DNA from: Amphiscolops sp. MND2022
Taxonomy: Eukaryota
Length of the DNA stretch: 64,000 nt
Assembly (NCBI GenBank): GCA_964187785.1
Contig: OZ076409.1
Location: 7,194,001-7,258,000 of the forward strand
Direction: 5' to 3'
Of this stretch, positions 25,161 through 57,204 are shown one piece after another. The notes below the pieces were generated by a model, which was given only the letters and a program-made list of their open reading frames with translations, had not been told where the DNA came from and did not search any database. Made by a program: the position numbers and the translations under genes. Each line of letters begins with the position of its first letter. The first letter of the stretch is position 1.

Positions 25161-25184
25161 TTCTTTTCCTTCATCTATTCTCCC
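25161..25184 (-). promoter_or_regulatory. Polypurine tract of element 2
   Basis: GGGAGAATAGATGAAGGAAAAGAA directly before TGTAG; second copy at 37389-37412 on the plus strand. Confidence 0.75.
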
Positions 25185-36025: not shown

Positions 36026-37303
36026 TTGTTCTTTCTGAAGTCCTTTCTGAACTGTCTATTTTCTTCCGTTGGCTGTTTGGTATACGGAACACTTCTGTAA
36101 GCTGAGGTGGTCGTGTTCCTGTGATAACAGTCTCGAGCAGAGTGTCCCACCGTTCCGCAAATTTGACACACGAGTTTTGAGTTATACTTGGGTCTGTTGT
36201 CTGGGTTCTGGGTAGCTTGGGTTGGTTGCTGTGGTTTTTGACTGGCGGGTTTAGCTTGTGCTTCTTCTCGCAGTCGTTTCTTGCATTCCACCCACTTGTG
36301 TCCATGTATGCCGCAGTGACGGCACTGCCCGTCGAACTTTCTTTTCGTCTCTCTGTTTTGTTGGGGTTGGACGATTGATGTCGGAGGTGTGGCTGCATTT
36401 GGTTGTGGTGCACGTATTTGGTTGAACGGTTGGGCATTTGTAGTGTTCTGGAGGAGTTGTGCATACTGACTTCTTCGTTGCACGAACGTCCTGATTTCTT
36501 CCATGGTGGCGTCATGTTTTCCCGCCATTGCCAGTTCATTCTGCATATGGACTGGAAGTTTCGCGAACAGGAATGTTTCTGTTAGGTCGTTTGACCTATC
36601 GCCAAAAGCTTGTTTTGCTACTTTCTTAAACTTGTTGAGAAAGTCGTTAAATGTTTCAGTTGCGGGGTCGTACCGCATTTGGTCAATTGTGTATTTGGCC
36701 ACCTCTTCCAGGTCCTCTTTGGCATACTCCTTCTTGAAATAACGTAATACTTGGGCGAGTGTTGTTTGAGTTATTATTTTCAGTGATTGCCAGAATTCGA
36801 TGGCGTCATCACGGAACAGGCTTTGAAAATACGTCAGTTTTGTTCTTCTGACAGTTTGTGTTGATGTGATCGGAGATGATTTAGCAAGAGGTGCTCGAAC
36901 TTGTTGTATTTTTCCCTGTTTCCCCGGAAGAGCGAGACTTGGGTTTGTAGGATTTTCGGATGTTGCAGGTTATCCGACACTGTCATGGCATTGTATACCT
37001 CAAGTGATGGCTTTCGGTCACGATGTCCTCCATTTGGTTGGTGGATGACTGAGGGTATTTTGAAGTGGATTGTCGTTGTGGGTTCGTCTGCGTGTTACTG
37101 GTGGTTGCTCCTGTCACCATGTCGGAACGGGTCTCATGTCCTATTGAGACCGTATTGAGGTCGTTCCCTTCTCTATTGCTAGAGGAAATTTTCTCCGTAA
37201 GTATCAGCACGAGATTTGGTAACTCTGTTATCTGCCTGATCATCTCAGAGAACCTTTGATTCACAGACAATTGTTCCGGTTCATTTCTACTATGTAGTAA
37301 GTT
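36007..37303 (-). pseudogene. gag of element 2 (frameshifted; N-terminus lost in the LTR rearrangement)
   Basis: Capsid-like LFAKLP; knuckles CRHCGIHGHKWVEC and CQICGTVGHSARDC; joined directly to the dUTPase-like region near 36028. Confidence 0.88.
37107..37119 (-). promoter_or_regulatory. PBS of element 2 (TGGTGACAGGAGC)
   Basis: Directly follows the LTR end CA; identical to the element 3 PBS; resembles the complement of a tRNA-Leu 3' end (inference). Confidence 0.85.
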
Positions 37304-38322
37304 GCCATGCCTGATGCATGAGAATACCGAATAAAGATGTGGTTAACTACACAACATCCAAGAAACGAAACAAACCAACAGACGATACGGGAGAATAGTT
37401 GAAGGAAAAGAATGTAGTTTACCACACAGCATCATCAAACCTGAAATTCAAAACTTTCACATAAACCATTCATATTTAGTTTTTCAAATAGTTTCGTCCA
37501 TCTGCAACCATAATCATAAACTTGCTACATGTACCTTCCAAAACAACTTTATGATACACTATATGATGTAGTTGGCACGCCATCATCAGATTTCCATTCA
37601 ATGCAGTTAGTCATGTAACCATCATTTATATATAATGTTCTAGTCATACGATGTAGGTAGCATAACCACATTGCCGTGCTGTGCGAACATACCAATTAGT
37701 GAGTCATGTAACCATAGTAACGAAAGTACATTATATTCCAGTGCAGTGTTAAACTAAAACTCAAATTGCGCAATTACCAACCAAGGTGTGAATGAACGCA
37801 AGAGTATGATTGGTTGATGTGGTCACGTGACCATCGTCGCCATAATTGACACCAGACAATATAGTACCACCAGTAGAAATTGGATAGTTAGAAACGTGCA
37901 GTTGCTTACTACATCAGTATATTGATATTACAATTTTCAACATTTGTCAACTTATTACCTACAATAACCAATAAAACTTCAAACTCTTACACCTTCATTT
38001 ATGGTCAATACTAGATCCAAGACGATCAAAAAAACACCTACGAATATGGACGGAATAGACAGGTATAGCGGTACCGAAAGCGAAAGTAGCATTCCTGAAG
38101 TACTGACCAGAGATCAGATTAGAGAATTCGACGACGGAAACTTACTACATAGTAGAAATGAACCAGAACAATTGTCTGTGAATCAAAGGTTCTCTGAGAT
38201 GAACAGGCAGATAACAGAGTTAAGAAATCTCGTGCTGATACTTACGGAGAAAATTTCCTCTAGCAATAGAGAAGGGAACGACCTCAATACGGTCTCAGTA
38301 GGACATGAGACCCGTTCCGACA
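37304..38322 (+). repeat. Inverted copy of the element 2 3' end (pre-PPT sequence, PPT, full LTR 37413-38322)
   Basis: Reverse complement of 24252-25268, joined to a 184-bp U5 remnant (37120-37303). Confidence 0.9.
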
Positions 38323-39528
38323 CTGTGCGACTTTCGTTCAATTTTTTTTCCACCAAAGGGTCCCTCCTTCAATTTTTTTGGAGTTTTTCAACAGTCTGGA
38401 TGTTGAAAAATCCCAAAGGGTCCCCCTTCCAGTTTCTTCGGCATTATGAGACTTTTTTCAAAACGTTTCTTCATAAAAGGGTCCCCAGTTCACCAATACT
38501 TTGACATTTTGATGTCCTTCTGCTATTTTTGATCCTTAGATATGGCGCCGACTTGGGTCGTTCCCGGCTTGTTATACACATATGTGTATTATCTTTAGTT
38601 CTGTTACGGAACCATTATTGCTACCATTTTGAAAGAGTATAGTTTGGCATACAAAAGAGATCAGTACTTAAAACTTGTTTTCATCTAACCAAGTAGAAAT
38701 TGAACACTTGTAATTTCGTCGAAGCAATATTTTACGGAGTAAAAATTGAACAATATGCATAAGCTGATCATTTTGCGGTGTAAATTCTTCAGAGGGCGTT
38801 TTCAGAAAATGTTTTAATTTCAAAAGTCAGAGATCAGAATCGAAGTGGCAAAGTTTGTGCCGAACACTTTTTGCGAAGAACAGCGCTTCTCGAGATAATG
38901 CATGATATCAAAATCCCAGAAGTCTAAAAATAACGAAGCGTTTTGTTAGTTTCTTTTGTTGTTTTTGTGTGAGTTCAAAACAGAAATAGCCCTGTTGCTC
39001 CAATTACTTTTGTGTCTAAGATTCTGTACAATTTTATTGCGATTTCAATCAAGTTGAGATTTGAAATTGAGTATCTTTAGCTTTTTTTGTATCCTGGTGA
39101 AGAAAAACGTGAAGAGAGTGTAATAAACTCGTGTGAAATTTTTGCAAGATTATGCAAGATTATGCAAGAAGCAGATTACGCTGTTTGATTCGTGCTTACT
39201 ACAAAAGGAAAATTTGAAAGAAGAGAACCATTATTTGTGTTTTTTTTTAGATTGAGATGACCCTATTTTGGTTTCTTTCAAAAGAAGTCAAATTTGATAC
39301 ATTAAACATCAAGCATGATAGAGCTTATTAGTACTGTTTCTTAAGCTAATAAAACTATACCGCATTTTTGAAAATCAAATTTCGTTAATGGCAAAACAAT
39401 GTCATCTTGCAGTGTTCCCAGTTTGGTTTTTGATTGGTGGAGACTCTTGAAGCACCCAATAGTCTTTAAAAGAGATTTTGAAGTTTCTGAAAATTTACTG
39501 CCTTGAATGTGAGGTTGTGTTTTCTCAG

Positions 39529-40740: not shown

Positions 40741-40897
40741 AATAATGCTAAAACTTTTATGATGAAGCAAGGCTCAAACAGCTCAGAGTGTTTTATATAA
40801 GCACAAAGGTATTTCGGTGTAATCTGAAAAATCTCACGGTGTTGAAAATTTTCAAAGGAGGAACTCTTTGATCTCTTACAAAAGTGCCTTTGGTATG

Positions 40898-42469
40898 TGT
40901 CCCAGGCGTCCGCCTGTGATGGAAATCTTTATGCAATTAGTCACGACTACAGGAAGGCGCAGCCCAACACCCTCCCACTGAATTAAGTCTTACAAGCAAA
41001 ACTATATTTGTTGCCTTAAAAGTCATGTAAAATCCTATATATTTCATTTTGTACAAGCTATATTATGTAATTCTATGTATTAATACGAGTTAATTGGACA
41101 CCAAGGCGTACAGGTAAAGGAAACGCGTTCAAATGTTTTCTTGCCTGTCGCCTTGGTCCGCAAGTCCGATTAACTCGTCATCCAATCATAGCGCAGTGTT
41201 ATGTAACCTTTACTCGTGCTAGCATAATAGATTAAAGGACCAGACAGCTATATGCCGCCTGCTAATAAAACGCCGGGCTGTACCAGTCTATTGGACACTG
41301 AGTCCGCGCTTTAATTGAGAGTGCTATTCTAACTAGCAGTACTGGTTATGTAATAATTAATCTTTTGATAACTAATAAAAGGCGCTATTGGTCCTCAAAG
41401 GACTGATTTAATATTTTAGACTTAGTTTGATGGTGTTGCTTCGTATGTAATTTGCGCAATATATTTAGTTTAGAATATATGTAAAATTACTATCTATACA
41501 TGTAGTAAGCATTTCATACATGTAATATGTATTTCATACATGTAGTACGTTGCTTAGTATGCATGTAAGCAGTTGCTTGTCCTAACGGACTCATGGTCCC
41601 GCCGCCATATTTGCCGCCAAGAGGGACCTTTGATCTATATGATGTAATGTTGACGTTGCCTGCTATTTATAGATTGTAGCTATATTTAGAAAGCCCTTAA
41701 GGCTATTTTTAGAATATGATCACCATTTTATTGAGTGTCATGTAGATTCAAATATATATAACCGGGACTGGTGGTCCCGGGGAGAGAATTATTCTGATGA
41801 TACTTTGATACGTTACTGTTGCATTACTGTTGCGAATTGTTTATTAAAACTACCCGTTCATTTTCACTTTGCAAGCCCGAGATATTAATTTAAATTCTTG
41901 CCTCTTGCAATAATCTCTTATGCATTCTACTAGACGTCAAAAGGCTAAAGCTAGGAGATCTAGAGAAATGGACATGCTGTCCGACTATGATAACCTAGAC
42001 GTGATGTTGGGAAATGAAAATAATAATCCCATTGAAAGAGAACTAGCCGATGTGATAGATCAGTCATCGGCCCACGGGGACGATGATACAAACGTGTACC
42101 ATGAAAATGAGTTTAGAGATTACTTACATGAAAATGAACCTTTGAGGCAAAATGAAGTCAGGCAATCCTTTGAGGCCTTTTCAAGTGAGTTTAATCTTAG
42201 ATTGTCTCAAGAAATGGAATCTATGATGTCAATAATGCATAGCCAAATAAATAGGGCTATAACAACAGCTATAGCTGAAAGAGTTATTCCAGAAATCCAG
42301 AATATTGCGAACTCGATGTCCTCTATGGGACACAGGGACACTGAGGCCAGTTCGTCCCCAAATAGTCAGGAGAACAGGGAAAGCGCACCCGGGCCTAAAC
42401 TAAAAATTGCAAAGAAAGATTCAAGATCTGTAGGTGACTTAAGAGATACCATAGGTCATGGTTCTTACA
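40898..42469 (+). repeat. 5' LTR of element 3 (1572 bp)
   Basis: About 11 substitutions and one TA indel versus the 3' LTR by eye; TATA-like 41753-41760; ATTAAA 41843; gag ATG 41920. Confidence 0.96.
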
Positions 42470-43609
42470 TGGTGACAGGAGCTACCGACACCCAACCGCA
42501 AATTCCCGAATTTCTGACCGGACGAATCCACTCAATCCCGAACCTAGAGAGACAACAATCCACACACAATATCTCTCTGGACACGACTCTGCCAGCCCCG
42601 GCCCCAGAGGCTCCTGAACCTCCTCAGGACCCGTTTAATAGACTAGCCGACGTATTGGTCAATTTGCAAAACAAACCGCAATCTATGACCATCAGACCCG
42701 TACAAACAACCCCGATGACATTTGATGGTAAAAGTGAAAAATTTGAGCTCTTTGAGGACTTGTTCCATACGATGATCAAAATGCAGCCCACAATGACAGA
42801 ACAAATGAAAATTAATCACTTTCATTCTTTGCTACGAAAGGGAGCATTACAGACATTCAGGAACATAAACTCAATCAACCGTCAAACTCTCGAGGACGTA
42901 CTGGTCATATTCCGGAGGAAATATGTCAAACCGGAATCACAAGCAACGGCAAAGCATAAATGGCACCGATTGACCTTCGATCCAAGTACAATGAAACTAC
43001 CAGACTTCTTGGAAGAACTGAACCAAGGTGCAGAAAAAGCATTTGGGGAAAACGCTAAAAGCATGATTGACAGCTTGTTATACGCGAAATTACCCCCAAA
43101 ACTGAAACGATCTGTCAACATGGCCCGTCTGGAGAACGGCACGTATGAAGAAATAGTCGCTCATCTTGAAAGAGAACTGGAACTCAATGCATTAGAAGAG
43201 TCAGATGATCTGCCAATGGCCACTATGGCCTCGGCGTCCACGAGCCATAACAATTTACTGTCCAATGGCATCAACACAAATAAAGACGCCCAATGCTCAT
43301 ACTGCAAGGCGACGGGTCACTATTACAAAAACTGCCCGAAACTCAAGAAGAAAAAGGAAACGGAGGACAAAGACGGTGAAAAAACCTCAGCGTCCAACTT
43401 ACCCACCGTGTGACACATGTGGCAAAAAGAACCACCCAACCGAAAGGAGCTGGCAAGGCGCTGGCGCCCACCTGCGACCCAAAAGGATGCAGACAGAACA
43501 AAATGACCGAAATGCTATAGACTCCGAAGGAAAGCCTAAAAAAGCAAATGACCCAGAAACGGCTACTTCAAGCCGACCCAATACTAAAAAATCTGATTCA
43601 AAAAACTAA
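41920..43609 (+). CDS. gag of element 3 (one frameshift near 43380)
   Basis: FDGKSEKFELFEDLF capsid-like motif; CSYCKATGHYYKNC; second, degenerate knuckle CDTCGKKNHPTERSW in the shifted frame. Confidence 0.9.
42470..42482 (+). promoter_or_regulatory. PBS of element 3 (TGGTGACAGGAGC), inside the gag frame
   Basis: Directly after the LTR end TTACA, where the 5' and 3' copies diverge. Confidence 0.9.
43600..43606 (+). promoter_or_regulatory. -1 ribosomal frameshift slippery site A AAA AAC
   Basis: Canonical X XXY YYZ just before the gag stop; the -1 frame continues into the 43612 ORF. Confidence 0.75.
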
Positions 43610-43611
43610 TT

Positions 43612-46600
43612 TTGCCACGACTCCAAATACATGACTATATGTCGGTTCGACAATATGTCATTTCAGACCCTCCAATAATCAAATACAGCCAAACAATCAA
43701 GGATACAAAAGGAATTCCCACTGTTGTCTGGCAGCAACAAATGGAAAAAGCCTGTATTCGAACTTATAAAATAGTACATAATGATCGTCCAGACCGATTT
43801 TACGAAATCGACTATACTATGAGACTCAATTCCGTCCCTTACCCTTGATCGAAGATTATCACCCTCAATACCCCGATCCTGATTACGGCAAAGACCCGTA
43901 TTGGGACGACGAACTCTACGACAGACAAAAACTCCAGTTTAGACAAGACGAATATCCACCAACGGACGACGAGGATGATCCCCCGATAGTGGACAACAAA
44001 CTATCCAGGGCCCTCATTGAACTTTGGCAGCCAAATTCCGAAGCACTGTTAGAAGAAATAGAGGAAACTCAAGAGCAAGAAGACTTTCAAGGCCCCGACA
44101 GCCTTTTAGACGAAACAGCCTTCTTGCACATCCTAGTGGAAAAACAAGGAGAACCGTCATACGTTCCCCTCTCCACCAACCTTGGCCTCAAAATCAAAAG
44201 GCGGATGCTATATTTCCCAATGGACTTTGGAGAACTAACATTAGATGGTCTCATAGACACTGGGGCCCACTCCAGCGCGATACCAGAAGCTGACTTTAGG
44301 AAAAAACGGCTACTTGCACCCCAATCAATAGTGAAAGAGGGTCCTGCCCCGTCATTCCAAATTATGGTCGCAAATGGAGACCTGGAAACTCCGAAGAGTA
44401 CAGTAGAACTGAAGTTCGAAGTAGGGTACATAGAGTTCCACGAAATCTTCATAGTGATGGAAAAATTATCCAGCCCCATAATTGGACTTATGTTCTTACA
44501 AAGAAACCACACAGTCCTAGATATGCGCCAAGGCATACTTAACTTCCCCTTCTTCTCGATGCAATTGAAAACAGCTGACCATAAGTACTCCAATGTAATG
44601 GAACCTATCCTCAACCCCGAGGATATAACGATTCCGCCAAATGGACGTACAATCATCCCTATCCAATCTCAAATTTATGCAGAAAAGGCTGTCACTGGAA
44701 TCTTACAACCCAGTGACCTTCTAAACGAAGAAAATGATATAACATTTTGTGCCGCCATAGTCACACTGGACGAAGGGACTACGAGGATCCATGTCAACAA
44801 CTTCACAGACCAGCCCTTTAAACTCAAAAAAGGGATGCACATAGCGAATTTCTCAGTGATGACTCCAGAGCAAATGAAACACGTTAGGCCAATAGACCCA
44901 GTGTCCACTTGGCACCTACTCAATGAAAATGAAGAAGATGCTATTTATTATATCAGCAGCCTTCTCAAAGCCAACACGAACAATGACCAATACGAACAAT
45001 ACTGGTTTCCAACAACCGAAAACCCAGGGGACGCAGAGTCACATACTCCAATACAAAAGAGAATTCTTAGAGAATTACGAAACCTGCAAGAAGCAGAAAA
45101 ACTAAATCCACAAGACAATGAAGAATCTCGACAAAAATTCCTCAGTAACTTTGACTGGAAGGACTCAATGCTACAATAGCATGAAATCAAACAGATAGAA
45201 GCGCTATTAGTCGAATTTTACGACATATTTGCCCGTCATAGGTTTGACATTGGTATGAATGAGGAGTTCACGGTCAAATTGACCCCGAAGGACGACTCTC
45301 CTGCCTACAGCCAGAGCTTACCAACTCCGGTCAATTTAAAAGAGGACATATTGGTCGAATTAGCGTCACTACACAAATATGGTATTATAACAACATTACC
45401 ATTCTCAAAGTACGCTAGCCCTATCTTTGCACAAAAGAAGCCCAATGGGAAACTGCGACTACTGGTAGACCTCCGGAAGATCAACTATCTCATTTCTGAC
45501 GACTATATCAACAACAACCATCCAGTCAGCACCTTAACGGACGCTGCACAACATATGGCCGGAAAGAAACTTTTCTGTAAGCTTGACTGTTCGCAAACGT
45601 ACCATTGCCTTCAAATGGCGGACCAACGGTCTATAGAGATGTTGGCCTTCAACTTTGCCAGCCGAACGTTTGCATATCGAAGATTGGTCCAAGGTCTCAG
45701 TAGAGCCTTATCGGCATTCTCCAGTTTTATGAGAGAATATTTGGACCGTGTCATCAAAGCCGATCAATGTGCCCAATACGTGGATGATATTGGCATCGCG
45801 GCCAACGACGCTGAGCATCTCATTAAAAATCTCAGAGCAACTTTCGAATGCATCCGAGAGGCTGGATTGAAATTAACGATGCATAAATGCCACTTCGGAG
45901 CAACTGAGATTGATTTCTTAGGAAGGACAATCACCCCTGAGGGTGTCAAGCCCCAGAAGGAACGAGTCATACAATTCCTAGAAAAAACGAAATTCCCAAA
46001 ATCCAAAAAAGCCTTACAACGTTACCTCGGATTCCTTAATTATTATAGAAACTACATACCGAGGTTATCAGAAAAATTAGTCCCTTTCTTTCAACTATTA
46101 AAGAAGGACGAAAAGGTCTTAGTCACAACGGAATTGATTGAAAAATTCAACGAGATCAATAGAGATTTGGACAGATGCACCCAGCTAGCCCTGAGGCAGC
46201 CCTTGCCAAATCGACAGCTAGTCCTGATGACAGATGCTAGCTTCACAGCAGCCGGATATGCTATACTTACTGAAGATGATCCAAATCAGAAATTTACCTC
46301 AACCAAGAAATCCTATGCGCCTATTGCATATGGTTCAAAAACTTTTACTCCTTCACAGCTTAACATGTCAATTTATGCGAAGGAATTTTTAGCCATCTAT
46401 TACGCCTTCAAAGAATTTGGACATATATTCTGGGGCACACCTAAGCCGGTGATTATCCTCACAGACAACAAATCGGTCACAAGGTTCTTCCAGACTAAAA
46501 TAATACCGCCGCCATTATGGAACGCGTGTGACTTTGTTATTCAGTTCAATTTCACTATAGCGCACATTCCAGGCAAAAACAACACAGCGGCGGACTACCT

Positions 46601-48692
46601 GTCCCGCATGGAAATGGACCCCACTGAAAAGTTAGTCCTAAAAATCCGAGCGGACGTTGAAACCCAACCTATTGAAGTTAATGTCCAATCAGCCGGCATG
46701 TCTGAAGAAGAACAAGTGTTCTTTACAGAAGAAGACAATGAAACAGAAGAACAAATTTGGGAAAGGAAAAAACAATCAAAAGCAGGACTCAAGGTCGATG
46801 AGACCGTCATCCAAATCGATACCATATCTGAAAATGTAGTAGATGAAATTACCAATTTCACTCAGAAACTACGCAGAACCAACCAAATACTACTAGAACA
46901 ATCCAAAGATCCGATCTTGCTTCATTTAAAAGCAAAAATTCAAAATGAAGAATACTCTGAAGAAATCCTTCAGCAGGACATTCGGTATAAACATTATTTA
47001 AATAACTTAGACCGTATAGTCCTCAAGGACGAAATAGTGACCCGACAGTATTACGACGAAACGGGACAAATCAAATACCACCAAATCTTACTGCCAAAGC
47101 ACCTGTTGAAAGAACTACTGCAAGCAATACATGGCACGGCACATCGACATCCAGGCATCTCTAAAATGCTGCAAGAGATCCGCCAAAAATACTACTACCC
47201 TGGCATAGCAAAATACGTTAAAAAATGGGTAGAAGGATGCGAAACGTGCGCTAGAGACAAAAGAGTCCCAAATAATACAATTACACCAGAATTGTTAAAC
47301 TTACCCGAATGGGACCTTGGTCCAGAAGATGCCATGCAGATAGACTTATTACCAAACTTACCGACTAGTGGCGGATACCAGACGGTGATGACGGCTATAG
47401 ATGTATTCTCAAGATACTTATTCGCCTACCCGCTAATTGAGGCAACAGCCACGAATGTAGCCAAGGTGATAATTGATATCATGACGAAACATTCATATTT
47501 ACCAACAACTCTCATCACAGACAAAGGGTCTGCATTTACATCGACCATCATAGCTGAGATAACTCAAATTTTGGGTATAACACTCAAATGCGCTACTACA
47601 AAGCACCCGCAAACAATTGGCAAACTCGAAAGGACCCATGCCTCACTCAAAACAAATTTGAAAATGGCCTCAGGGGAATATCGACGCCAATGGCATAAAT
47701 ATTTACCATTAGCAGTACTCAACTACAATACCACATACCACTCTAGTATTGGATGTGAACCGAGCAAAGTCTTCCACGGCCGGATTCCCTATAACGTCCT
47801 AGACCACAAATTGGGAAATAACCCCAATAAAAATTTTCTGCCAACTACAGAATTTGCGGAGGAAGTACAGCAGAGGACACAAATCCTCATTGATCAAACA
47901 AAAAAGAACATAATGCAGTCTTATTTGAAATATAAGGACTATTACGACCGAAAGGCAAAGGCTGCCCCGCTTAAAGAAAAGGACTACTGTTTTAATCTAC
48001 AGCCTAAAGCGGACAGTCAGGCATCAAAAATTCCTTTCAGGGAATACAGATGGATTGGCCCGTTCGTCATACAGAAAGTACTGTCCAACGACAATTATAT
48101 TGTCCGTCGCCTAAACACAAACAAAACTCAAATACTTCATCGCATTAGACTAAAGAAATTCGTCCCGAATGCCCCTTTAGAGGACAAATACGATGGAGAA
48201 AAATTACAACCTGACAATGAGATAGTAATCCCGCAAGACGATTTGTACACTATCTCATGGGAAGTAGACTTTGAGTACGACTTATTTGAACCGAGGAAGG
48301 AAAATTGGACAGACGTGGCCACACGCCGGCCGACGGACGCCGAGTCCACTAATACGGACAATGACGTTACCGACGAGGAAAGCGCTAGCAATGAAAGCTG
48401 CAGCGAGCGCACGACAAGAAATGACGTCACCGAGAAGCAAATGAGACCGCGAGAGAACAATAGCAGTGACGAACCGTCCCCGCCGAATGAAACGCCAAAT
48501 GGGACTGAGAATGAAAATGACGTCACTAATGATTTAAAAGATACGGAAAACGTTTCAAATACAGGCGCAGATATTACCGTGCCCGGAATATCAGAAAATG
48601 GAAATTCAAATGAAAATTCGAGCCCTAGAGGAGGGAAATACAATCTTCGACCTAACCCTACCCCCAACTTTACTGATGAATACAGATACTAG
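43612..48692 (+). pseudogene. pol of element 3 (PR, dUTPase-like, RT, RH, IN) with a frameshift near 43845 and an in-frame TAG at 45177
   Basis: LIDTGA, QYVDD, MTDAS, HGTAHRH...CETC, TDKGS, GKLER, WIGPF. Confidence 0.95.
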
Positions 48693-48925
48693 TCAGAAAA
48701 TTAAATTACTAGTCCCCTCCCTTTACTTCTAGCCCTTGAGGACTTTTATTTTTTACTTGGGACTACTCTGACTGATTTTTTACCGATTACTGAAACGATT
48801 ATATACAAAAAGAGAGACTCAGTGGCGAATAATACAAAGCCACGCAAACAAGCAACAAAGAAGAAATTATACAAAACAGTTTACAGAAACTACAAAGTCT
48901 AGAAACAAATGTACTCTTTGTACAT

Positions 48926-51900
48926 TTAAGATTTAGAAGTTCCAGGAGCGTTTATATTGGAGGACTGATTGGCGTCTGATCCACTCGTGGGCTTGAAGCA
49001 AACCTTTCTACTCTTCTCGGGGGACGGCTTGCGGGATTTACCTCCTTCTTTCGATGAGGAACTTGAGACGCACTCAGGGTCGGGCCGGACACCTTTACAC
49101 AGAGCTTTATATACAGCGACCAGAGTCTTGTGAAAATTAGCCCTGCCAAAGCTGTCAACGTGAGTCCAAGGATCTCCGGGGACATTGCCGCAGCTGAACC
49201 GCAACTCCAGATCTTTGAATGTACCCAGGGAAGCTTCAGTAGTGCAAGCAGCTACTGCGCTCGAAACGTTGGCGAGATAAGACTGGGCGGGCATGATTAT
49301 GTCGAACAGCCGACTGCGGGGTTCACTACAATCGACCCCAGAAAACTTGACGGCTGGGAGCTCTGGCGATTTGGATGTGAGGCACAAACAGCTCAGTTGG
49401 AAGATGTGGAATAAATGTTTGCGCATCTTCAGCTCTGGCATTCCCATCAAGGTCACAACCATGTCTGTGAAGACCTCTGGGGTGTTCTTGGCTCCAGAGT
49501 TGACTTCCCGAAAGTACTCTAGAAATTCGACGTACTCGTCGCGGATGTCGGCCTCTGAGGAATTCTCCAACCACCCTCGCAGGCTGAAGGAACGGTGGAG
49601 CGCGGAAAAGCAATATGTGGCCTGCTCAAGAGGCAGGTTCAGGAGGGCTACCGGGTCGAAACTGGCTAGACCCCTGACGATACCAGCATTGAGGCTAATA
49701 TCGGCCAAAAAGACTTTCAGCAGGTAGACGAGGTAGCTTCGGGCCTTGGTGGCGAACTCGTCCCGGGTGGCTTCAACGGCGGCTTCTGTCTCTTCTGGAG
49801 TCAACTGCTTTTCGCTGTAATTTCTCTTTACTCGCGCAAGACAACAGGCATCGAGATTCTCTTTCAGCTTCAGCCGACTCAGGAAATCGCGGTTTGACAA
49901 CTGCTTCCAATTTTGTCCCTGCATGTCATCCAGGGCCTTCCAGTCCAAAATCTCTGGAACATGCTTGGGAAGCAGTGCACGCGCAGCTAACTTGCGGATG
50001 AAGGTGTGGAATTCCCGGAAGGTGTAGAATCCACTGTCCCTTCGCTGGGCAAACTGGCTCTCGAAGCTCTTGGTGTCTGGAATACAAAATATATATGATT
50101 ACCCTAATTGGTCCATTCTACAGCTACGGACCTAAAGTTGGCAGTCTACTACATTTTGGTCAGGTTTCTTGTAAAAGCAAACAAAAATAGGACTCTGTGG
50201 CCATGTGACAAGACAAAAGAGGTAGATACTAACAATCACGAACGATCCGCGCGAAGAATTCCAGTTTGATGATGAAGAAATCATCACCGATGATCTCCCA
50301 TTCCAAACTCTGGGGTTTGTGTTTGACACCCTGGTGCACTTGTGGGGGAGCAATCTTGGTGAGATACTGGTGGATGGCCTTCCAGTTCGCGATCAGTTCG
50401 GAGCATATGGCGGGCACGGCAGAAATCTCCAGATGGCAGGTCGACATAGCCTATAGACAATATCAAAATTAAAATCAACCTATGGTTGGACCTACAGTCG
50501 ATGTGACGTTGTCCTTACCTTGACGAATTCAGGCATCAGTGCAGCCCAGGGTTGTCCGCTGCAACCGTCTAGAAAGGTGACCAGAAACTTCAGCTGCGAG
50601 AAGAAGCTAATGGCCCCAAACACGCTGCCCCATCGCTCGTGCATCATGCTGGGCAGACTCAGTGCATCGAATCGGAAGGGGTACTCTATTCCCTTCTGGA
50701 AGAATTGAGAACGCTCAAGCAGAGGGATCAATTCTGCGGGACACCCAGACACACTCACGATTTGAGGCTGAGCGGACAACACGGACAAGAGGCGAGAAAG
50801 AGCAAGCAGGAAGCCTGCAGCAGGTTCCGAGGCTGTGCGATAACGCAGTAGTCGGACAACGTTGAGACAGTCGCCCTTCCAGAATCGGATTGACACGAAA
50901 CTATAGGTGCCTCGTGTCTCAAACTCCAAGGAGTACTGTCCAGTGACGCTGACGTGGTACGCAATGTCCGCGATACCGCAGAGGAAAATGTGATGGAAGA
51001 TCGCCTAAAATGAACCAATAGGGATGAAAATATGCTCAGGCTATAATAGCCTGAAGGCTCTTGAGGCTTAAAATGGATGATACTTACAGTCAGCGTGGTA
51101 GAACCCCAATCGTAGGGGGAGAACAGGTTCTGGTGATTGGTCACGGTGCCAATCTGCGCCCACAGCAGCTCGAGGACATGGAGGTCTCCGCATCGGGGAG
51201 CGAAGAGGGCTACCATGGAGATTTGGACGCACAGTCTGATTTCCTCCTGCCCAGCAACAGATCCTAGCCCGGCCATGTGGTCCTCGTAGAACGGATAACT
51301 ACATCCCATCTCGACTAGGGGAACCTGCATGAAAAAGGGTTTCTCACGCTCTAGCTCAAGAGGGGTCAGCACTTGTCCTTTCTTCCCTCTGACTTCATGG
51401 ACAATTCGACCAGTCACTGCGTCCTTCTTCTTCAGGTGTTCGTATCTCCAGCGCTGGTCCTTGCGGAAATGAGCCTCGCACTGGAAATGCCGCACAATCT
51501 CTCGGGCGCCTTTGGAGAACATGGACACGTTGGTCTTGCATATCTGGCAATAAAACTTGTGTTTATTATGCTCAGGGTCCAACGGTCCAGTAACAAAAGT
51601 CCGAGTCCACTGTATTCCCTTGAAATAAGCCTCCTTCATTATTTTGCCACTTCGGGCAGGAACTCGGCGGCGCTTGCGGGGAGGACTAACGGCAGAAGCT
51701 TGATCCCCTGTCAAGGTAGCTAATGGCTCATAGTCCGTGGAGCAGAACCCAGGACTAGGAACTTGCTGGCTGGTTGACGGCCCACTTACACTGAGGGAAT
51801 CTTGAGCAGGAGGACTAGGAGGAGGGGCAATGTTGAGTTCTTTTCCGGTTCTTCGAGAATTCACCACGAACTCATCCTCAGAACTGAGGGCTCCACTTGT

Positions 51901-52863
51901 GTACCCTTCGGTACCAGCGTCACTATCCAGTCCATCTAATCCAGGACTGTCTGACTTCTTGCGGAAGCACTTGACTCGTTGCCGATTAGGACTCTGTTGA
52001 ACATTCTGTGACCTGATTCCTACTCGGATGGCTGCTTCCAAGATGTTCTTCATCTGATGAAGGGATGAAGTAATGGTCTCAGAGGACACAGCGCGCAGAA
52101 TAGAATGTACTTGGCCCTGATTAAAGGCCACTGTGGCATGCCCGACTGGAAGGATACTCGGATTCGTTTCGCTGAAATGTTGATTGATGAGGGTCCGAGC
52201 AGAAGCAGACAAAGGCCTAGTAGGGCTAAGAAGCTTCGGGGACGGAGCATCAGGCAACCCAGCTGAAGTCGACGGTCCAGCCTCCTTGAGGACTTCAGTC
52301 TCCACAACGCTCAAATTCTCCATGTTAATCAGGAAAGGGGATTCTTTAAGGGTCTCTGCGCCAGAACTGTCAAGCAACTCTTCGTTGTCACTTGTGTCAG
52401 TTTGGAAATAATCTGCCTTAGCGACAGAAAAGCCAGTTTCACTTTGGATGTCAGCCGCAGGGTCGACATCGACTTCACCCGACTCCTGATTGGAGGCTTC
52501 TCCCACTACCTGAGGGATGGGGTCCGACTCGGAGGCTTTCTCAATAGCTGGATGGACAGCCTTATCTGCAATAGCAGTGCTAGTAGGGGGCAAGAAGGAG
52601 ATGTCAAGACCAAGGCCCTGGCAACCCAAAGTCTGCAGTTGACGGTCAATGTAGGCGGAAATGCTTTCATCCGTAGAAGGGCTTGGGGTCGGAGCAGTCT
52701 TATCAGGATTATCTCCTGGCGGCACAAGTTGTGTGGACTCAGTGTCTACAGTGATCGAAGTGGCCTGACTGGTACCAGCTTCTTCGGGAATGGCAACTTC
52801 TTCTTCAGCCATGGATGCAGTAGCAGTGGCAGGAACAATATCATTTCGCTCTTCGGACGACAT
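48926..52863 (-). CDS. Antisense 4-exon gene, ~1209 aa, BED-finger hAT-transposase-derived protein
   Basis: Exons 52863-51088, 51004-50519, 50450-50234 and 50076-48926 are joined by GT-AG introns into one uninterrupted frame; FYCQIC...IVRHFQCEAH finger. An alternative ATG lies at 52917. Confidence 0.85.
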
Positions 52864-54117
52864 GTCTAAACAGAAAGAGATAAACTCAAGCGGAAAACTT
52901 CCTGAGAAAGAGTCCATTACCGCATTAAAAATCTTCCGGAAGTAGATATTTCGAACTCAAGTGAACACTTGTGTTATGGGACAGGAAGTACGTGAATGAA
53001 ATGAGAGCCCTGATCAAGCCTCAGATTAATTCATTACTAAAATAGAAACAAAACCTGAAAAGCTACTGACCTGTTTGAATGCAAAGAAGGATGTCTTGAG
53101 AGGGGAGTGCTGTGGACAGTTAGACTGGTGGTCACTGAATTGAAAGCTGAGCGATCAGTAGAGGAGGATGACGAAGCTGGACTGGTGACAATACAGCAGC
53201 AGTTGTGAGGAGAAGACAAATTCTTCTTTGATGAGGGACAAGAAAGATTACTGGAGATGAATTAGCGAAAAGGGACTCAGTGTCGATTGTCCTAGGATGA
53301 CCCAAGAAATCCACAAAAGACGTAATCGGAAGAAATTACAAATGAGTACTTCAAATGAATACGGAGTAAATACGACTAGAAGACTAAAAGACTAAAGACG
53401 ATTAAATACTGGACGATAATACAAAGAGTAACTGGAAAGAATTTGAAAAGAATGAATTCAAAAGAGAATTGGCAATGTGACAAGATGTCAAAGTTGGAGT
53501 TCGTGGCTATACAGTTTGGTGTCAAATTTACAAGATATTTACAATTTACACTATTATGTGGATAGAGTCTGCCAGCGATATCTACATTCTTTCATTTATC
53601 TTATTTCGAAACTTTACCATTTTATAAAATATTTCATGATTTTACCAGGATTTTATTTAATTTCAGGTCATTTTATATTATTCCTTATATGGATTTACGC
53701 CCTTGGGGAGCCATTTTTACTCAAGAGAAATTTTGCTGCATTCCTATTGGTTGATCAGAAACGCTGATGGACGGCGTGGCCGTCTGCCATAGCTTCACCC
53801 TCTTGAAACTTTTAAGTGCTTGTTGAGTGTTAATAAACACTTGAAGCGACGCTCTTAATATGGAAGTGTTGATAGAGTTGATGTATGTCAACAAAGCCTC
53901 AGTCGGCATTTTCAAAGAAGACTGAGCGGCTAGTTAATAGACTCTAGAAAGAAGGAATTTTGTTATTGAAAATTTAGTCAGCAAGGAAGGGAGAAACCCC
54001 GGGAAACTGAAACGAAAACTCCCGCAAGTCGACAGAAGGGGAAACCGCCATTGTTTCAGTTTCACTTTTGAAAATCAGCAGCTTCTCAAAACTCAAGATT
54101 TAAAACCTTTCAGTCAA

Positions 54118-54984
54118 TTGTCCAAGATAGCTAAAAAACTGATCATGGATAAATTCCTGGCAAGTCACTTCGACTGTGATTCTCCTCAATATTACCCCGA
54201 GGACTTTCAGGGGGCAGCGCCCGGAGACGGAATAATATACATATCATCGGACGACGACATGGAATGTGTCAGCAGCGCATCTGTTGACGACCTAGAAAGC
54301 CTGTCTGACGATGATGAGATGGCCCTCCTGGCTCAATGCGTGGAGAGACAGATGGAGCTTCCATCGACATCAGAAGCAATTTCCATCCCTTCCTCTGCCA
54401 ATAAGCAGGAAGTGACACGCGCCGCGACTCCCAGACTAGCGTACGTCCCTGGGCCTATGTTCGACGCTGGCTATTTTGACTTGGGAATGGGCAGAGGGCC
54501 GATTGCGAGAGACCCGCGACTAAGGAATGATCACCCAATCAATTTGTGTAGCCAGCTAATCCCTATGGTCGACACGCCTATGTCTCCTCCAGCCGTCGAC
54601 AAATATCCGTCAGGCGACTGGAGAATAGCAGCGGAAGCCACTACTAGTAGCAAACAAGAACATGCCAACGGAATACACTTCAGGGGACCAAGTGGCGCAG
54701 ATAACCCCTACATCTCAGGATGTACAGACTGCCTCGTCTGCGGGAAATCAGTCGAACAGATTCAAGACGAGGCAGTCATCGACTACCTTCATAAAACAAC
54801 CATCCAAGGAGAATCGGCCCTTCAATTCAACGCAAGAAGGCCAGCCTTCCTAGAAGGAATGAAGGTGGGATGTTTTATGCTCATTCCAGGGGGAGTGTCC
54901 CAGGCGTCCGCCTGTGATGGAAATCTTTATACAATTAGTCACGACTACAGGAAGGCGCAGCCCAACACCCTCCCACTGAATTAA
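54118..54984 (+). CDS. Additional sense ORF of element 3 (~280 aa, unknown function)
   Basis: Intact ORF (first ATG 54145); acidic N-terminus with IIYISSDDD; CTDCLVCG motif; runs through the PPT into the 3' LTR. Confidence 0.75.
   Translation: MSKIAKKLIMDKFLASHFDCDSPQYYPEDFQGAAPGDGIIYISSDDDMECVSSASVDDLESLSDDDEMALLAQCVERQMELPSTSEAISIPSSANKQEVTRAATPRLAYVPGPMFDAGYFDLGMGRGPIARDPRLRNDHPINLCSQLIPMVDTPMSPPAVDKYPSGDWRIAAEATTSSKQEHANGIHFRGPSGADNPYISGCTDCLVCGKSVEQIQDEAVIDYLHKTTIQGESALQFNARRPAFLEGMKVGCFMLIPGGVSQASACDGNLYTISHDYRKAQPNTLPLN
54888..54895 (+). promoter_or_regulatory. PPT of element 3
   Basis: AGGGGGAG directly before TGTCCC. Confidence 0.75.
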
Positions 54985-56469
54985 GTCTTACAAGCAAAAC
55001 TATATTTGTTGCCTTAAAAGTCATGTAAAATCCTATATATTTCATTTTGTACAAGCTATATTATGTAATTCTATGTATTAATACGAGTTAATTGGACACC
55101 AAGGCGTACAGGTAAAGGAAACGCGTTCAAATGTTTTCTTGCCTGTCGCCTTGGTCCGCAAGTCCGATTAACTCGTCATCCAATCATAGCGCAGTGTTAT
55201 GTAACCTTTACTCGTGCTAGCATAATAGATTAAAGGACTAGACAGCTATATGCCGCCTGCTAATAAAACGCCGGGCTGTACCAGTCTATTGGACACTGAG
55301 TCCGCGCTTTAATTGAGAGTGCTATTCTAACTAGCAGTACTGGTTATGTAATAATTAATCTTTTGATAACTAATAAAAGGCGCTATTGGTCCTCAAAGGA
55401 CTGATTTAATATTTTAGACTTAGTTTGATGGTGTTGCTTCGTATGTAATTTGCGCAATATATTTAGTTTAGAATATATGTAAAATTACTATCTATACATG
55501 TAGTAAGCATTTCATACATGTAATATGTATTTCATACATGTAGTACGTTGCTTAGTATGCATGTAAGCAGTTGCTTGTCCTAACGGACTCATGGTCCCGC
55601 CACCATATTTGCCGCCAAAAGGGACCTTTGATCTATATGATGTAATGTTGACGTTGCCTGCTTTTTATAGATTGTAGCTATATTTAGAAAACCCTTAAGG
55701 CTATTTTTAGAATATGATCACCATTTTATTGAGTGTCATGTAGATTCAAATATATATATAACCGGGACTGGTGGTCCCGGGGAGAGAATTATTCTGATGA
55801 TACTTTGATACGTTACTGTTGCATTACTGTTGCGAATTGTTTATTAAAACTACCCGTTCATTTTCACTTTGCAAGCCCGAGATATTAATTTAAATTCTTG
55901 CCTCTTGCAATAATCTCTTATGCCTTCTACTAGACGTCAAAAGGCTAAAGCTAGGAGATCTAGAGAAATGGACATGCTGTCCGACTATGATAACCTAGAC
56001 GTGATGTTGGGAAATGAAAATAATAATCCCATTGAAAGAGAACTAGCCGATGTGATAGATCAGTCATCGGCCCACGGGGACGATGATACAAACGTGTACC
56101 ATGAAAATGAGTTTAGAGATTACTTACATGAAAATGAACCTTTGAGGCAAAATGAAGTCAGGCAATCCTTTGAGGCCTTTTCAAGTGAGTTTAATCTTAG
56201 ATTGTCTCAAGAAATGGAATCTATGATGTCAATAATGCATAGCCAAATAAATAGGGCTATAACAACAGCTATAGCTGAAAGAGTTATTCCAGAAATCCAG
56301 AATGTTGCGAACTCGATGTCCTCTATGGGACACAGGGACACTGAGGCCAGTTCGTCCCCAAATAGTCAGGAGAACAGGGAAAGCGCACCCGGGCCTAAAA
56401 TAAAAATTGCAAAGAAAGATTCAAGATCTGTAGGTGACTGAAGAGATACCATGGGTCATGGTTCTTACA
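54896..56469 (+). repeat. 3' LTR of element 3 (1574 bp); carries a 173-aa Gag N-terminal ORF at 55920-56441
   Basis: Direct repeat of 40898-42469. Confidence 0.96.
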
Positions 56470-57204
56470 GTATGTAAAACAAACTTTGAGCCTGGCTTCA
56501 TCATAAAAGTTTTAGCATTTCAACTGTATGTAATTCATAAGTTCTGTCAATCATCCCCATTTTAGATTTATTTTAGTTGTTTCACTTCTCATTTATATCG
56601 TTGAATATACGAGATACATCAAACGTTCGAACCTTTGTTGTTTAAAGAAAATACTGCCAATGTAATGCCAGGCAAATTTTTCCTTTTAAAAGCCTTTTCT
56701 GATTGTTTAGACGGACTTTGGATTTTCGATTTCCCAACAAGAAGCACCAGAAGATTTCCAGTCTCTATGGGACACAGGGACACTGAGGCCAGTTCGTCCC
56801 CAAATAGTCAGGAGAACAGGGAAAGCGCACCCGGGCCTAAAATAAAAATTGCAAAGAAAGATTCAAGATCTGTAGGTGACTGAAGAGATACCATGGGTCA
56901 TGGTTCTTACAGTATGTAAAACAAACTTTGAGCCTGGCTTCATCATAAAAGTTTTAGCATTTCAACTGTATGTAATTCATAAGTTCTGTCAATCATCCCC
57001 ATTTTAGATTTATTTTAGTTGTTTCACTTCTCATTTATATCGTTGAATATACGAGATACATCAAACGTTCGAACCTTTGTTGTTTAAAGAAAATACTGCC
57101 AATGTAATGCCAGGCAAATTTTTCCTTTTAAAAGCCTTTTCTGATTGTTTAGACGGACTTTGGATTTTCGATTTCCCAACAAGAAGCACCAGAAGATTTC
57201 CAGT
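56321..57204 (+). repeat. 442-bp tandem duplication spanning the LTR end, TSD and flank
   Basis: 56321-56762 equals 56763-57204. Confidence 0.92.

Follow-up and report, generated by a model that had tools for sequence, protein, structure and literature searches.

Does a spliced gene that lies antisense inside an LTR retrotransposon, between pol and the 3' LTR, belong to that element, and where does its protein come from? The question is raised by the window (the whole stretch of 64,000 nucleotides analysed here), in which an earlier note had described such a gene in a gypsy element and interpreted it as a dead hAT transposase domesticated by the element. Accessory genes separate simple retrotransposons from complex retroviruses, and they are poorly known in LTR retrotransposons. 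The explanation that we regard as the best one as a whole, and as rather likely, is that the region forms the accessory module of a Ty3/gypsy LTR retrotransposon, autonomous and residing in an animal genome, and that its element-borne antisense gene encodes a DNA-binding regulator or tether. As for the earlier interpretation, the idea of a selected, integral component of the element held, while the descent from a hAT transposase is without proof.

The host is a complete, young Ty3/gypsy element of 15.6 kb (window positions 40898-56469), residing in an animal genome. Its direct LTRs of about 1.57 kb, 99.2% identical over 1575 bp in a self-BLAST (40897-42469 versus 54895-56469), have TG..CA termini and are flanked by the short TSD GTATG. 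The Pfam domains of pol follow the Ty3/gypsy order protease, RT, RNase H and integrase, with a dUTPase between protease and RT (RVT_1 1.4e-22, RT_RNaseH 8.5e-17, Integrase_H2C2 7.5e-16, rve 3.2e-12, dUTPase 8.4e-6). The gag frame begins within the 5' LTR, at 41914, and measures 564 aa in a sister copy. Three lesions had been claimed for gag and pol of the window copy, and the comparison with a sister copy whose frames are open bears them out. It had also been stressed that the antisense gene is intact although gag and pol are broken; the lesion counts behind this statement are right, but the contrast has no evidential weight, because zero lesions in 3.6 kb and three in 6.8 kb fit a single lesion rate. 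Five of 11 copies have an intact antisense CDS, and one has gag and pol intact. At the level of reading frames, the element is shown to encode four predicted genes, namely gag and pol, a sense ORF3, and the four-exon antisense gene that lies between ORF3 and pol (Table 1).

Table 1. Features of the retrotransposon and of its antisense gene, in window coordinates.
Feature	Position	Strand	Remarks
5' TSD GTATG	40893..40897	.	identical 5 bases after 3' LTR, 56470-56474
5' LTR, TG..CA, 1572 bp	40898..42469	+	self-BLAST, ends read directly
gag, DUF1759-type, CCHC knuckle	41914..43413	+	Pfam DUF1759 3.6e-5; truncated by 1-bp insertion near 43378
pol: aspartic protease, dUTPase, RT, RNase H, integrase	43785..48692	+	Pfam; 7-bp deletion near 43819, in-frame stop 45177-45179
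AATAAA polyadenylation-type signal	48745..48750	-	about 176 nt past antisense stop, before end of pol; putative function
Palindrome AAATGTAC-AAAGA-GTACATTT	48907..48927	-	overlaps antisense stop codon
Exon 4, 382 aa + stop	48926..50076	-	ORF; all-alpha C-terminal domain, low-complexity tail
Intron 3, 157 bp, GT..AG, phase 1	50077..50233	-	GT/AG in 10/11 copies; remaining copy with deletion
Exon 3, 217 nt	50234..50450	-	same length in 10/11 copies
Intron 2, 68 bp, GT..AG	50451..50518	-	GT/AG in 11/11 copies
Exon 2, 162 aa	50519..51004	-	RNase H-like core beta1-beta2-beta3-alpha1-beta4-alpha2 (YSLEFE.., IVSVSGC)
Intron 1, 83 bp, GT..AG, phase 0	51005..51087	-	GT/AG in 10/11 copies
Exon 1	51088..52917	-	acidic Ser/Pro-rich N-terminal region, basic cluster PPRKRRRVP, CCHH finger (YCQIC..HFQCEAH), helical region
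5' flank of antisense gene	52918..53072	-	candidate promoter or 5' UTR; near 53065 a conserved donor-like CAGGT[CG]AGT
Sense ORF3, 347 aa stop-to-stop, first ATG 54145	53941..54984	+	second accessory gene; ends 89 nt inside 3' LTR
3' LTR	54896..56469	+	preceded by purine run AGGGGGAG; self-BLAST
3' TSD GTATG	56470..56474	.	ends read directly

The antisense gene is built of four exons and three GT-AG introns on the minus strand, between pol and the 3' LTR. The exon limits proposed before (52863-51088, 51004-50519, 50450-50234 and 50076-48926, minus strand) were recovered, as were introns of 83, 68 and 157 bp, every one of them GT..AG. Once spliced, the frame counts 3630 nt, that is 1209 codons plus a stop, and is free of internal stops. 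Exon lengths of 486, 217 and 1151 are the same in 10 of 11 copies and GT/AG is conserved, despite a DNA divergence of about 25%, and in the aligned copies the most divergent stretches of the gene are the interiors of the introns. Uninterrupted homologues span junction 1 (P0172 and P0179) and junction 3 (P0018 and P0090) without gaps; P0153 carries a 26-aa insertion that starts with VS exactly at junction 1, and P0278 a 23-aa in-frame insertion that starts with V exactly at junction 2. By comparative sequence, from these homologues and copies, the predicted four-exon spliced model is confirmed. The introns presumably survive owing to their antisense orientation relative to the genomic RNA, and the family illustrates that a gene travelling by reverse transcription can keep spliceosomal introns and can also lose them.

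Concerning the start, the frame opened at 52863 was right, but a likelier start lies 18 codons upstream, at ATG 52917-52915, and gives a product of 1227 aa. Homologues conserve the in-frame upstream peptide MDSFSGSFPLEFISFCLD at their N-terminus, and they include P0177 and P0211, both without the second Met; the true start is probably ATG 52917, with a product of 1227 aa rather than 1209 aa. The adjoining 5' flank, whose function is putative, is nearly invariant among subfamilies with a coding DNA divergence of about 25%. At the other end of the gene, 9 of the 11 aligned copies have the AATAAA, and two have AATGAA there with an AATAAA about 30 nt further. The palindrome at the stop codon is identical in 11 of 11 copies, next to coding DNA that is about 25% divergent, and its folding energy is -7.6 kcal/mol (z -2.5).

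The motifs which had been listed for the protein are all found in the spliced product (YSLEFET, ELIANWKAIHQYL, IKLEFF..FESQF, GLASFDP..IRDEY and HLFHIFQLSCLCL), and the CxxC..HxxxxxH described with them corresponds to YCQIC..HFQCEAH. The protein was modelled and searched as separate halves, the N-half and exon 4. The N-half model was made from a sister copy in which an 84-nt intron 1 is open in frame, which adds 28 residues to the model, and its mean pLDDT is only 65.6. In the AF2 prediction the finger is beta-beta-alpha (C53, C56, H73, H79) and is followed by beta-beta-beta-alpha-beta-alpha; the pLDDT of the finger region is 81-96 over most of model residues 51-130, with 74 in one block. The exon-4 AF2 model (pLDDT 77.7) contains helices only. 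In the alignment of homologues, the basic cluster and the finger region are the best-conserved part of the protein, and a nuclear, DNA-binding role is plausible since the conserved basic cluster is followed by a CCHH finger. Among single gene models containing the finger region none longer than 1037 aa was found, which is weak evidence.

After the modelled beta4, where DDE enzymes have their second catalytic Asp, all aligned homologues have SGC (S/F/C-G-C); no acidic residue follows beta4, and beta1 carries E, not D. The reported absence of the DDE triad is thus supported by the homologue alignment and by the model, both without a second catalytic carboxylate. This absence bears on activity more than on descent, because derived host genes may also be triad-less. 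An RW motif had likewise been called absent; the window copy does have HERWGS, but the statement stands for the family in so far as these residues are not conserved across it.

The antisense protein may be a distant relative of hAT DNA transposases. An origin from a degenerate hAT-type transposase is suggested by the order of its domains (finger, helical linker, RNase H-like core, all-alpha domain), and we hold the balance for and against it to be about even. Hermes and other hAT transposases, together with the host genes derived from them (ZBED, FAM200 and GTF2IRD2), resemble the window protein, as modelled, in the order of N-terminal CCHH-type finger, helical region, RNase H-like core and large all-alpha domain. 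The window protein differs from Hermes and hAT transposases in having no DDE triad (SGC stands in place of the second carboxylate) and no dimerisation, BED or DUF659 match in Pfam, and the window gene differs from a hAT element in having no TIRs or 8-bp duplication and in moving by reverse transcription of its host element.

At the sequence level the claimed descent found no support, since the Pfam, PDB sequence-profile and profile-profile tests were all negative. In Pfam, none of the family members scanned matched the BED, DUF659 or hAT dimerisation domains. The hAT dimerisation domain PF05699 was found in 0 of 35 exon-4 relatives at E<=0.1, whereas as a control 4 of 4 hAT transposases of the same genome matched it (E<=2.7e-15), and the BED finger PF02892 matched neither the window exon 1 nor 8 N-half homologues. 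At E<=0.1, Pfam gave nothing in exons 2-4 or in the 35 exon-4 relatives, and exon 1 and the N-half relatives (0 of 8 with hAT families) left only the trace of a sub-threshold zf-C2H2_ZN292 / C2H2 finger. PDB sequence profiles, Hermes included, gave no matches for either half, and comparison by hhalign with four bona fide hAT transposases encoded in this genome returned probabilities of 0.4 (N-half) and 0.35 (exon 4).

The structural comparison with Hermes by Foldseek, which the earlier note had suggested, found Hermes among the weak matches but nothing at E<=1e-3. Hermes 4d1q_G (E 0.015) takes the first rank and four more Hermes chains are within the top 17, all of them weak matches; at E<=1e-3 neither half-model matched anything in the PDB, nor did the exon-4 model in the viral library. 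Hermes gives the longest fold match for both halves, weak in each, and in collinear order. In a second look, at the RNase H-like core, Hermes fell outside the best 50, below generic RNase H-like folds, and the core was better matched by eRF1/Pelota, sugar kinases and retroviral integrases. Language-model look-ups led from exon 4 to FAM200/GTF2IRD2-like and Dimer_Tnp_hAT clusters (0.90) and from the N-half of P0172 to zf-BED and FAM200-ZBED5 RNase-like clusters (0.82-0.83), values in a range that shuffled proteins similarly reach.

As to the source of such a protein, the evidence fits an active hAT transposon as well as a hAT-derived host gene. It is a tentative proposal, which we consider on the unlikely side, that this animal Ty3/gypsy clade depends on a catalysis-dead hAT-type descendant, its DNA recognition kept, as a nuclear factor of its own which is traded as a cassette. 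Uses of a nuclear factor of this kind might be, for example, switching on or shielding the LTR, or choosing integration sites. If the transposase origin is true, one transposon class has recruited the DNA-binding machinery of another; if it is hAT descent, a mobile-element class has been domesticated by another such class and not by the host.

A comparably doubtful reading, though the best of the alternatives, is that the gene is a genuine element-borne accessory gene whose protein is not transposase-derived, its likeness to hAT reflecting a shared common fold. The protein could then come from a host C2H2/BED-type factor, from another DDE family or from an RNase H-fold module duplicated long ago. 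The missing sequence-profile signal to hAT argues for this, as does the sole Pfam trace, the sub-threshold C2H2 finger. In its domain order and in having a large all-alpha domain behind the core, however, the protein suits hAT better than integrase or RNase H, and against a common fold speak also the collinear Hermes matches, the longest for both halves, and the two language-model look-ups, both of which give hAT-derived families. Integrase fingers are HHCC helical bundles directly before the core, whereas here the predicted finger is a CCHH beta-beta-alpha unit about 180 residues upstream of it.

Whatever the ancestry of the protein, its gene behaves as a part of the element. We sampled 10 genomic copies from three identity tiers of the exon-4 genome matches (a non-random sample), and in 10 of 10 the antisense gene is at the same place, collinear over the whole element. 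For exon 4 the genome gave at least 108 scored matches (101 of 108 stop-free) and the database 427 relatives at E<=1e-3, which need not span many species because at least one distant relative, P0027, is from the same genome. Between the window copy and copy I1, dN/dS is 0.068 for gag, 0.058-0.059 for pol and 0.067 for the antisense gene, which gives 0.059 against copy B4, with synonymous sites near saturation (pS 0.67-0.70). A comparison of dN/dS across copies had been recommended, and its outcome, 0.06-0.07 for the antisense gene, is on a par with gag and pol. These ratios show purifying selection on the predicted antisense gene as strong as on gag and pol; such selection across replicating lineages shows that the putative protein matters, without indicating its role.

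The same values speak against an antisense unit that acts mainly as RNA, through dsRNA or small RNAs damping or tuning the element, with the protein secondary. For antisense units in other retroelements such a role has been put forward (PMC7264820), and over 3.9 kb the transcript would be the complement of the genomic RNA. However, an RNA-only role would not hold a 1209-codon frame at a dN/dS of 0.06 with saturated synonymous sites and exact exon lengths, so that we consider this reading improbable; an RNA role alongside that of the protein is possible.

In the family of P0027 the gene recurs. P0027 is 30% identical to exon 4 and has a 100% match elsewhere in the same genome, where its family counts 107 matches in tiers of 98, 92, 86 and 71%; an integrase ORF 69% identical to the window pol lies directly behind it, tail-to-tail. 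With at least 108 scored matches in one family and 107 in the second, these are very successful animal elements. The window copy and copy B3 differ in pol by a dS of 0.035-0.075 and in the antisense gene by 1.67; with copy A1 the antisense gene gives a dS of 0.017 and ORF3 one of 1.67. The comparison of copies shows a module swapped between element lineages via recombination. In the window's two other gypsy elements no homologue of the antisense gene was detected by tblastn or by family HMMs.

The gene could also be a passenger, a DNA transposon or host gene that landed once in a master copy and was copied along without use; gene capture by LTR elements is known (PMC7264820), and the cassette-like exchange between lineages would suit it, but this is the least probable reading of all, in view of a dN/dS of 0.06-0.07 equal to that of gag and pol at near-saturated synonymous sites (pS 0.67-0.70), the preserved splice sites and exon lengths, the same placement in a family only 30% identical, and the lack of TIRs or an 8-bp duplication around the gene. 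Between 48600 and 54100 only short imperfect inverted matches, at chance level, are present. A simple nested insertion, for which TIRs with an 8-bp TSD and the absence of the gene from sister copies had been named as signs, is rejected, as neither sign was found and element sequence flanks the gene in all sampled copies (10/10). The comparison of copies shows that the antisense gene belongs to the retroelement and is inherited with it, and supports its being an integral component, neither a passenger nor a nested insertion.

For an element-borne regulator or tether, the following mechanism can be proposed. The gene would be transcribed from its own promoter in the spacer of about 1 kb, head-to-head with ORF3, and the transcript would be spliced, with polyadenylation shortly before the end of pol. 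The protein would enter the nucleus by means of its conserved basic cluster and may bind nucleic acid through the predicted CCHH beta-beta-alpha finger and the catalytically dead RNase H-like domain, followed by the large helical domain. There its service to the element would most likely be that of a DNA-binding regulator or tether, either by activating or protecting LTR-driven transcription or by guiding the integration complex, with the long acidic N-terminus as the putative effector part.

The remark of the earlier note that it knew of no description of such a system is too strong, since gypsy elements of plants and fungi have been reported to carry antisense accessory genes at this place, after pol and before the 3' LTR (PMC7264820, PMC11963269). 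The antisense accessory genes described in LTR retrotransposons come from plants and two fungi. In plants, the antisense ORFs of Ty3/gypsy elements (aORF-3R) comprise maize Grande gene23, rice RIRE2, Silene Retand and TRP28 of the Retand lineage, and for the Grande gene an own promoter is reported (PMC7264820, PMC11963269). As these sources describe them, they lie in a long region from pol to the 3' LTR and run antisense to gag-pol, which is also the situation of the window gene (52917-48926 on the minus strand, with the pol stop at 48692 on one side and the LTR at 54896 on the other). Both are present in most copies of their families and are conserved like the element's own proteins, and for the plant genes, as for the window gene, a nuclear or DNA-binding regulatory role is suspected. 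The window gene differs in its host, which the presence of nuclear-receptor genes marks as an animal, in a protein several times larger with three introns, in the CCHH finger and RNase H-like core, and in the element's second, sense accessory ORF. Transposase_28 (PF04195), the domain of TRP28, had no match at E<=0.1 in exons 2-4 or in the 35 exon-4 relatives.

Outside plants, the gene brtn is reportedly the subject of Zhao et al. 2011, Virology 417:248. It is cited as an antisense gene of Boty-like gypsy elements in Botrytis cinerea and Sclerotinia (PMC7264820, PMC8365987) and is, like the window gene, an additional antisense gene located after pol and before the 3' LTR in Ty3/gypsy elements; unlike it, brtn is fungal and its proteins are reported as small and Cys-rich. 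The retroviral antisense protein HBZ of HTLV-1 (PMC11963269, PMC7264820) is likewise encoded by a minus-strand gene of a reverse-transcribing element and, by these accounts, is nuclear and thought to regulate transcription of its element, but its gene is transcribed from the 3' LTR and encodes a small bZIP protein, whereas the window gene is internal, has three coding introns and belongs to an unrelated family.

The position of the gene is thus already known, and the locus is a variant of it in a metazoan; among the papers searched, in their main texts, we found no animal case and no transposase-like antisense protein. The family offers a workable system for asking about the role of antisense accessory genes, with a large multi-exon gene under constraint at the level of RT and integrase and shuffled between lineages. 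For annotation, thousands of such ORFs in the same genome are at risk of being labelled host genes.

ORF3, for which Pfam holds no matching family, is open in 10 of 10 sampled copies (204 aa in one, 296-347 aa in the other nine), and its dN/dS is 0.065-0.08.

The element was found to be a complete Ty3/gypsy retrotransposon of 15,572 bp, with LTRs that start with TG and end with CA and with a gag frame that opens inside the 5' LTR. Its host is an animal, since at least 20 nuclear-receptor DNA-binding domains, which are specific to metazoans, are encoded in the genome. The features discussed here are collected in the table.

Features of the element and its surroundings (window positions)
Feature	Position	Strand	Remarks
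Element	40898-56469		
LTRs	40897-42469 and 54895-56469		limits of the 1575-bp direct repeat, 99.2% identical, from self-comparison of the window
Target-site duplication	40893-40897 and 56470-56474		GTATG, flanks both LTRs
gag frame		sense	DUF1759-type, zinc knuckle
pol frame		sense	protease, dUTPase, reverse transcriptase, RNase H, integrase
Antisense gene, junction 1	51088/51004	-	intron of 83 bp
Antisense gene, junction 2	50519/50450	-	intron of 68 bp
Antisense gene, junction 3	50234/50076	-	intron of 157 bp
Antisense gene, exon 4	48926-50076	-	
Palindrome	48907-48927	-	overlaps the antisense stop codon
5' flank of antisense gene	52918-53072	-	almost invariant among subfamilies
ORF3	53941-54984	+	347 codons stop-to-stop, first ATG 54145
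Tandem duplication	56321-56762 and 56763-57204		442 bp, perfect
Second gypsy element	2-8725	-	continues past the window edge
Third gypsy element	24251-38323	-	degraded

The four minus-strand exons and three GT..AG introns of the antisense gene lie exactly where the earlier note had placed them, and the spliced frame has 1209 codons without a stop. Translation probably starts 18 codons further upstream than was proposed, at 52917, because the in-frame peptide MDSFSGSFPLEFISFCLD is found again at the start of distant homologues, some of which have no second methionine. The evidence for this model is comparative: GT and AG are conserved at all three introns across subfamilies that differ by about 25% in the DNA of this region, the lengths of exons 2 to 4 (486, 217 and 1151) are identical to the base in 10/11 copies, with a deletion in the other one, and in the alignment of copies divergence is highest in the intron interiors. 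Moreover, the protein homologues P0172 and P0179 align without interruption or gap across junction 1, as do P0018 and P0090 across junction 3, split codon included, while in other homologues in-frame insertions sit precisely at junctions 1 and 2, their first residue being valine (GT.). Since these four homologues have no intron 1 or 3 at the predicted junctions, both introns have been gained or lost among the homologues, and this in a gene that is copied when its opposite strand is reverse-transcribed. Some 176 nt past the antisense stop, shortly before the end of pol, there is an AATAAA, which all copies keep or replace nearby. A further intron may exist in the 5' UTR, because a donor-like CAGGT[CG]AGTAGC is conserved in the 5' flank.

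The palindrome at the stop codon, AAATGTAC-AAAGA-GTACATTT, is identical in 11/11 copies, with neighbouring coding DNA about 25% different. It folds into a 9-bp hairpin (-7.6 kcal/mol, z -2.5) and could act in cis as a signal on either strand.

For exon 4, 108 matches were scored in the 1.07-Gb assembly (from 7635 first-look candidates); 101 of them are stop-free, and they form three tiers by protein identity (about 97-99%, 92% and 81-83%). Ten copies with 15 kb of surroundings were taken as a non-random sample (three of the highest tier, one of the 92% tier and six of the lowest); in all ten the element is collinear from LTR to LTR with the antisense gene in the same position, three having internal deletions elsewhere. 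A distant relative, P0027, 30% identical to exon 4, is encoded in the same genome, and the family to which it belongs has 107 separate matches, spread over four tiers of identity (G000 C6:22585016-22588600, locus L055). Immediately behind its stop comes, tail-to-tail, an integrase frame with 69% identity to that of the element; between lineages the accessory protein has therefore changed far more than pol. A nested insertion is ruled out by the ten collinear copies, by this placement of the P0027 family and by the flanks of the antisense gene, in which no terminal inverted repeats were found. The earlier claim of an element-borne gene is therefore confirmed, and the gene has long travelled with this element clade.

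We also evaluated selection, using the Nei-Gojobori method and sister copy I1, from a lineage in which the antisense gene, gag and pol show no trace of module exchange. Between the window copy and I1, gag, pol and the antisense gene have dN/dS values of 0.068, 0.058-0.059 and 0.067, at similar dS (0.50-0.65); constraint on the antisense protein thus equals that on the enzymes of replication. When the most distant subfamily of the sample is compared, the antisense gene has a dN/dS of 0.059, and its synonymous sites are almost saturated. Between the window copy and I1, over 48693-53940, introns are 15% and non-coding flanks 9-10% diverged, against a synonymous pS of 0.44; this suggests that either the element's non-coding parts are under constraint or the synonymous estimate is biased. 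Compared with an open-frame sister copy, gag-pol of the window copy is indeed damaged: two indels shift the frame, and there is one in-frame stop. However, the contrast drawn with an intact antisense gene, although true of this copy, is not meaningful, because among 11 copies the intact counts (antisense coding sequence 5/11, gag plus pol 1/11) fit one lesion rate per kilobase.

The element is a mosaic. In one subfamily gag-pol is 98-99% identical to the window copy while the antisense gene is only 68-81% identical; for its member B3, dS is 1.67 in the antisense gene versus 0.04-0.08 in pol. In another subfamily (A1) the antisense gene is 99% identical and ORF3 only 77%. Both genes thus look like cassettes swapped between lineages, an exchange that would have occurred by template switching between co-packaged RNAs.

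The N-terminal approximately 400 residues of the protein are acidic and Ser/Pro-rich with a few short conserved motifs; a conserved basic cluster, PPRKRRRVP, follows, and then the best-conserved block, which contains C-x2-C-x16-H-x5-H. Pfam gave no above-threshold hit for the window protein, nor for 35 relatives of exon 4 and 8 of the N-half, and profile search gave no match among PDB sequences. AlphaFold predicts exon 4 (35 sequences) as all helical, with a pLDDT of 77.7 and above 85 at residues 11-230. For the part from finger to exon 2 (41 sequences; modelled from a sister copy with intron 1 open in frame) mean pLDDT is 65.6, and the model has a beta-beta-alpha finger with four ligands, a helical region and a beta-beta-beta-alpha-beta-alpha succession, the core order of RNase H-like folds.

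The earlier note was right about a true element gene, but the descent from a dead hAT transposase that it proposed is plausible and unproven. The best Foldseek match of the N-half is Hermes (E 0.015), with four further Hermes chains within the top 17, and a language-model look-up returns hAT-derived families for both halves (0.90 and 0.82-0.83), all values being below the tools' reliable level. In a second fold comparison, Hermes was not among the 50 best matches of the core. When four genuine hAT transposases encoded by this genome (PF05699 in 4/4, BED and DUF659 in 2/4) were compared by hhalign, the probabilities were 0.4 for the N-half and 0.35 for exon 4, and the hAT dimerisation domain is undetectable in the exon-4 family. 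We give a hAT-type origin roughly even chances; if it holds, the data fit either a transposon or an already domesticated host gene as source.

Comparison of the copies establishes the antisense unit as an element-borne, intron-containing, selected protein gene. It would have its own promoter inside the spacer of about 1 kb, head-to-head with ORF3; the part of the spacer adjoining the antisense gene is almost invariant among subfamilies. The antisense transcript would be spliced, because only there are the introns in sense orientation, and the protein, which is probably a nuclear nucleic-acid-binding factor, would enter the nucleus, bind DNA and serve the element as a regulator or tether. Activation, anti-silencing and targeting are equally compatible with the data.

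The antisense ORF of Boty in Botrytis and Sclerotinia was reportedly treated by Zhao et al. in 2011. Conserved antisense ORFs lie between pol and the 3' LTR in the plant gypsy elements Grande, RIRE2, Retand and PvRetro13, with a TRP28 domain encoded by 97% of clusters in the Retand lineage (PMC7264820, PMC11963269), and one has this position in Boty (PMC7264820). Because these elements have the same layout as that of Amphiscolops, the layout is of a known kind and to call the system wholly undescribed was an overstatement. The literature searched, supplements excluded, contained no animal or transposase-like antisense case. What is new is the animal host, the large antisense gene with three introns, a distinct family with a predicted finger, dead RNase H-like core and helical domain, selection measured to be as strong as on pol, the exchange of accessory genes as cassettes, and a second, sense-strand accessory gene in the same element.

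Some observations concern the rest of the window. The second gypsy element has a single uninterrupted frame of 2908 codons with protease, RT, RNase H and integrase, and holds no homologue of the antisense gene. In the third, gag knuckle, RNase H and integrase pieces lie at 33022-36969 between 1-kb inverted repeats (24251-25272 and 37299-38323, 95.8%), and its 26-34 kb part is G-/T-rich and carries ORFs of 170-240 codons on the plus strand, none with a Pfam family. The tandem duplication, which comprises the terminal 149 bp of the 3' LTR and 293 bp of flank, may be real or an assembly artefact.

ORF3, the second accessory gene, ends 89 nt into the 3' LTR and matches no Pfam family. It is open in 10/10 sampled copies, though no longer than 204 aa in one of them, and has a dN/dS of 0.065-0.08. 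It occurs in two deeply diverged versions, swapped between lineages, and contains an IIYISSDDD-type hydrophobic-acidic stretch, which we take to be reminiscent of a SUMO-interaction motif.
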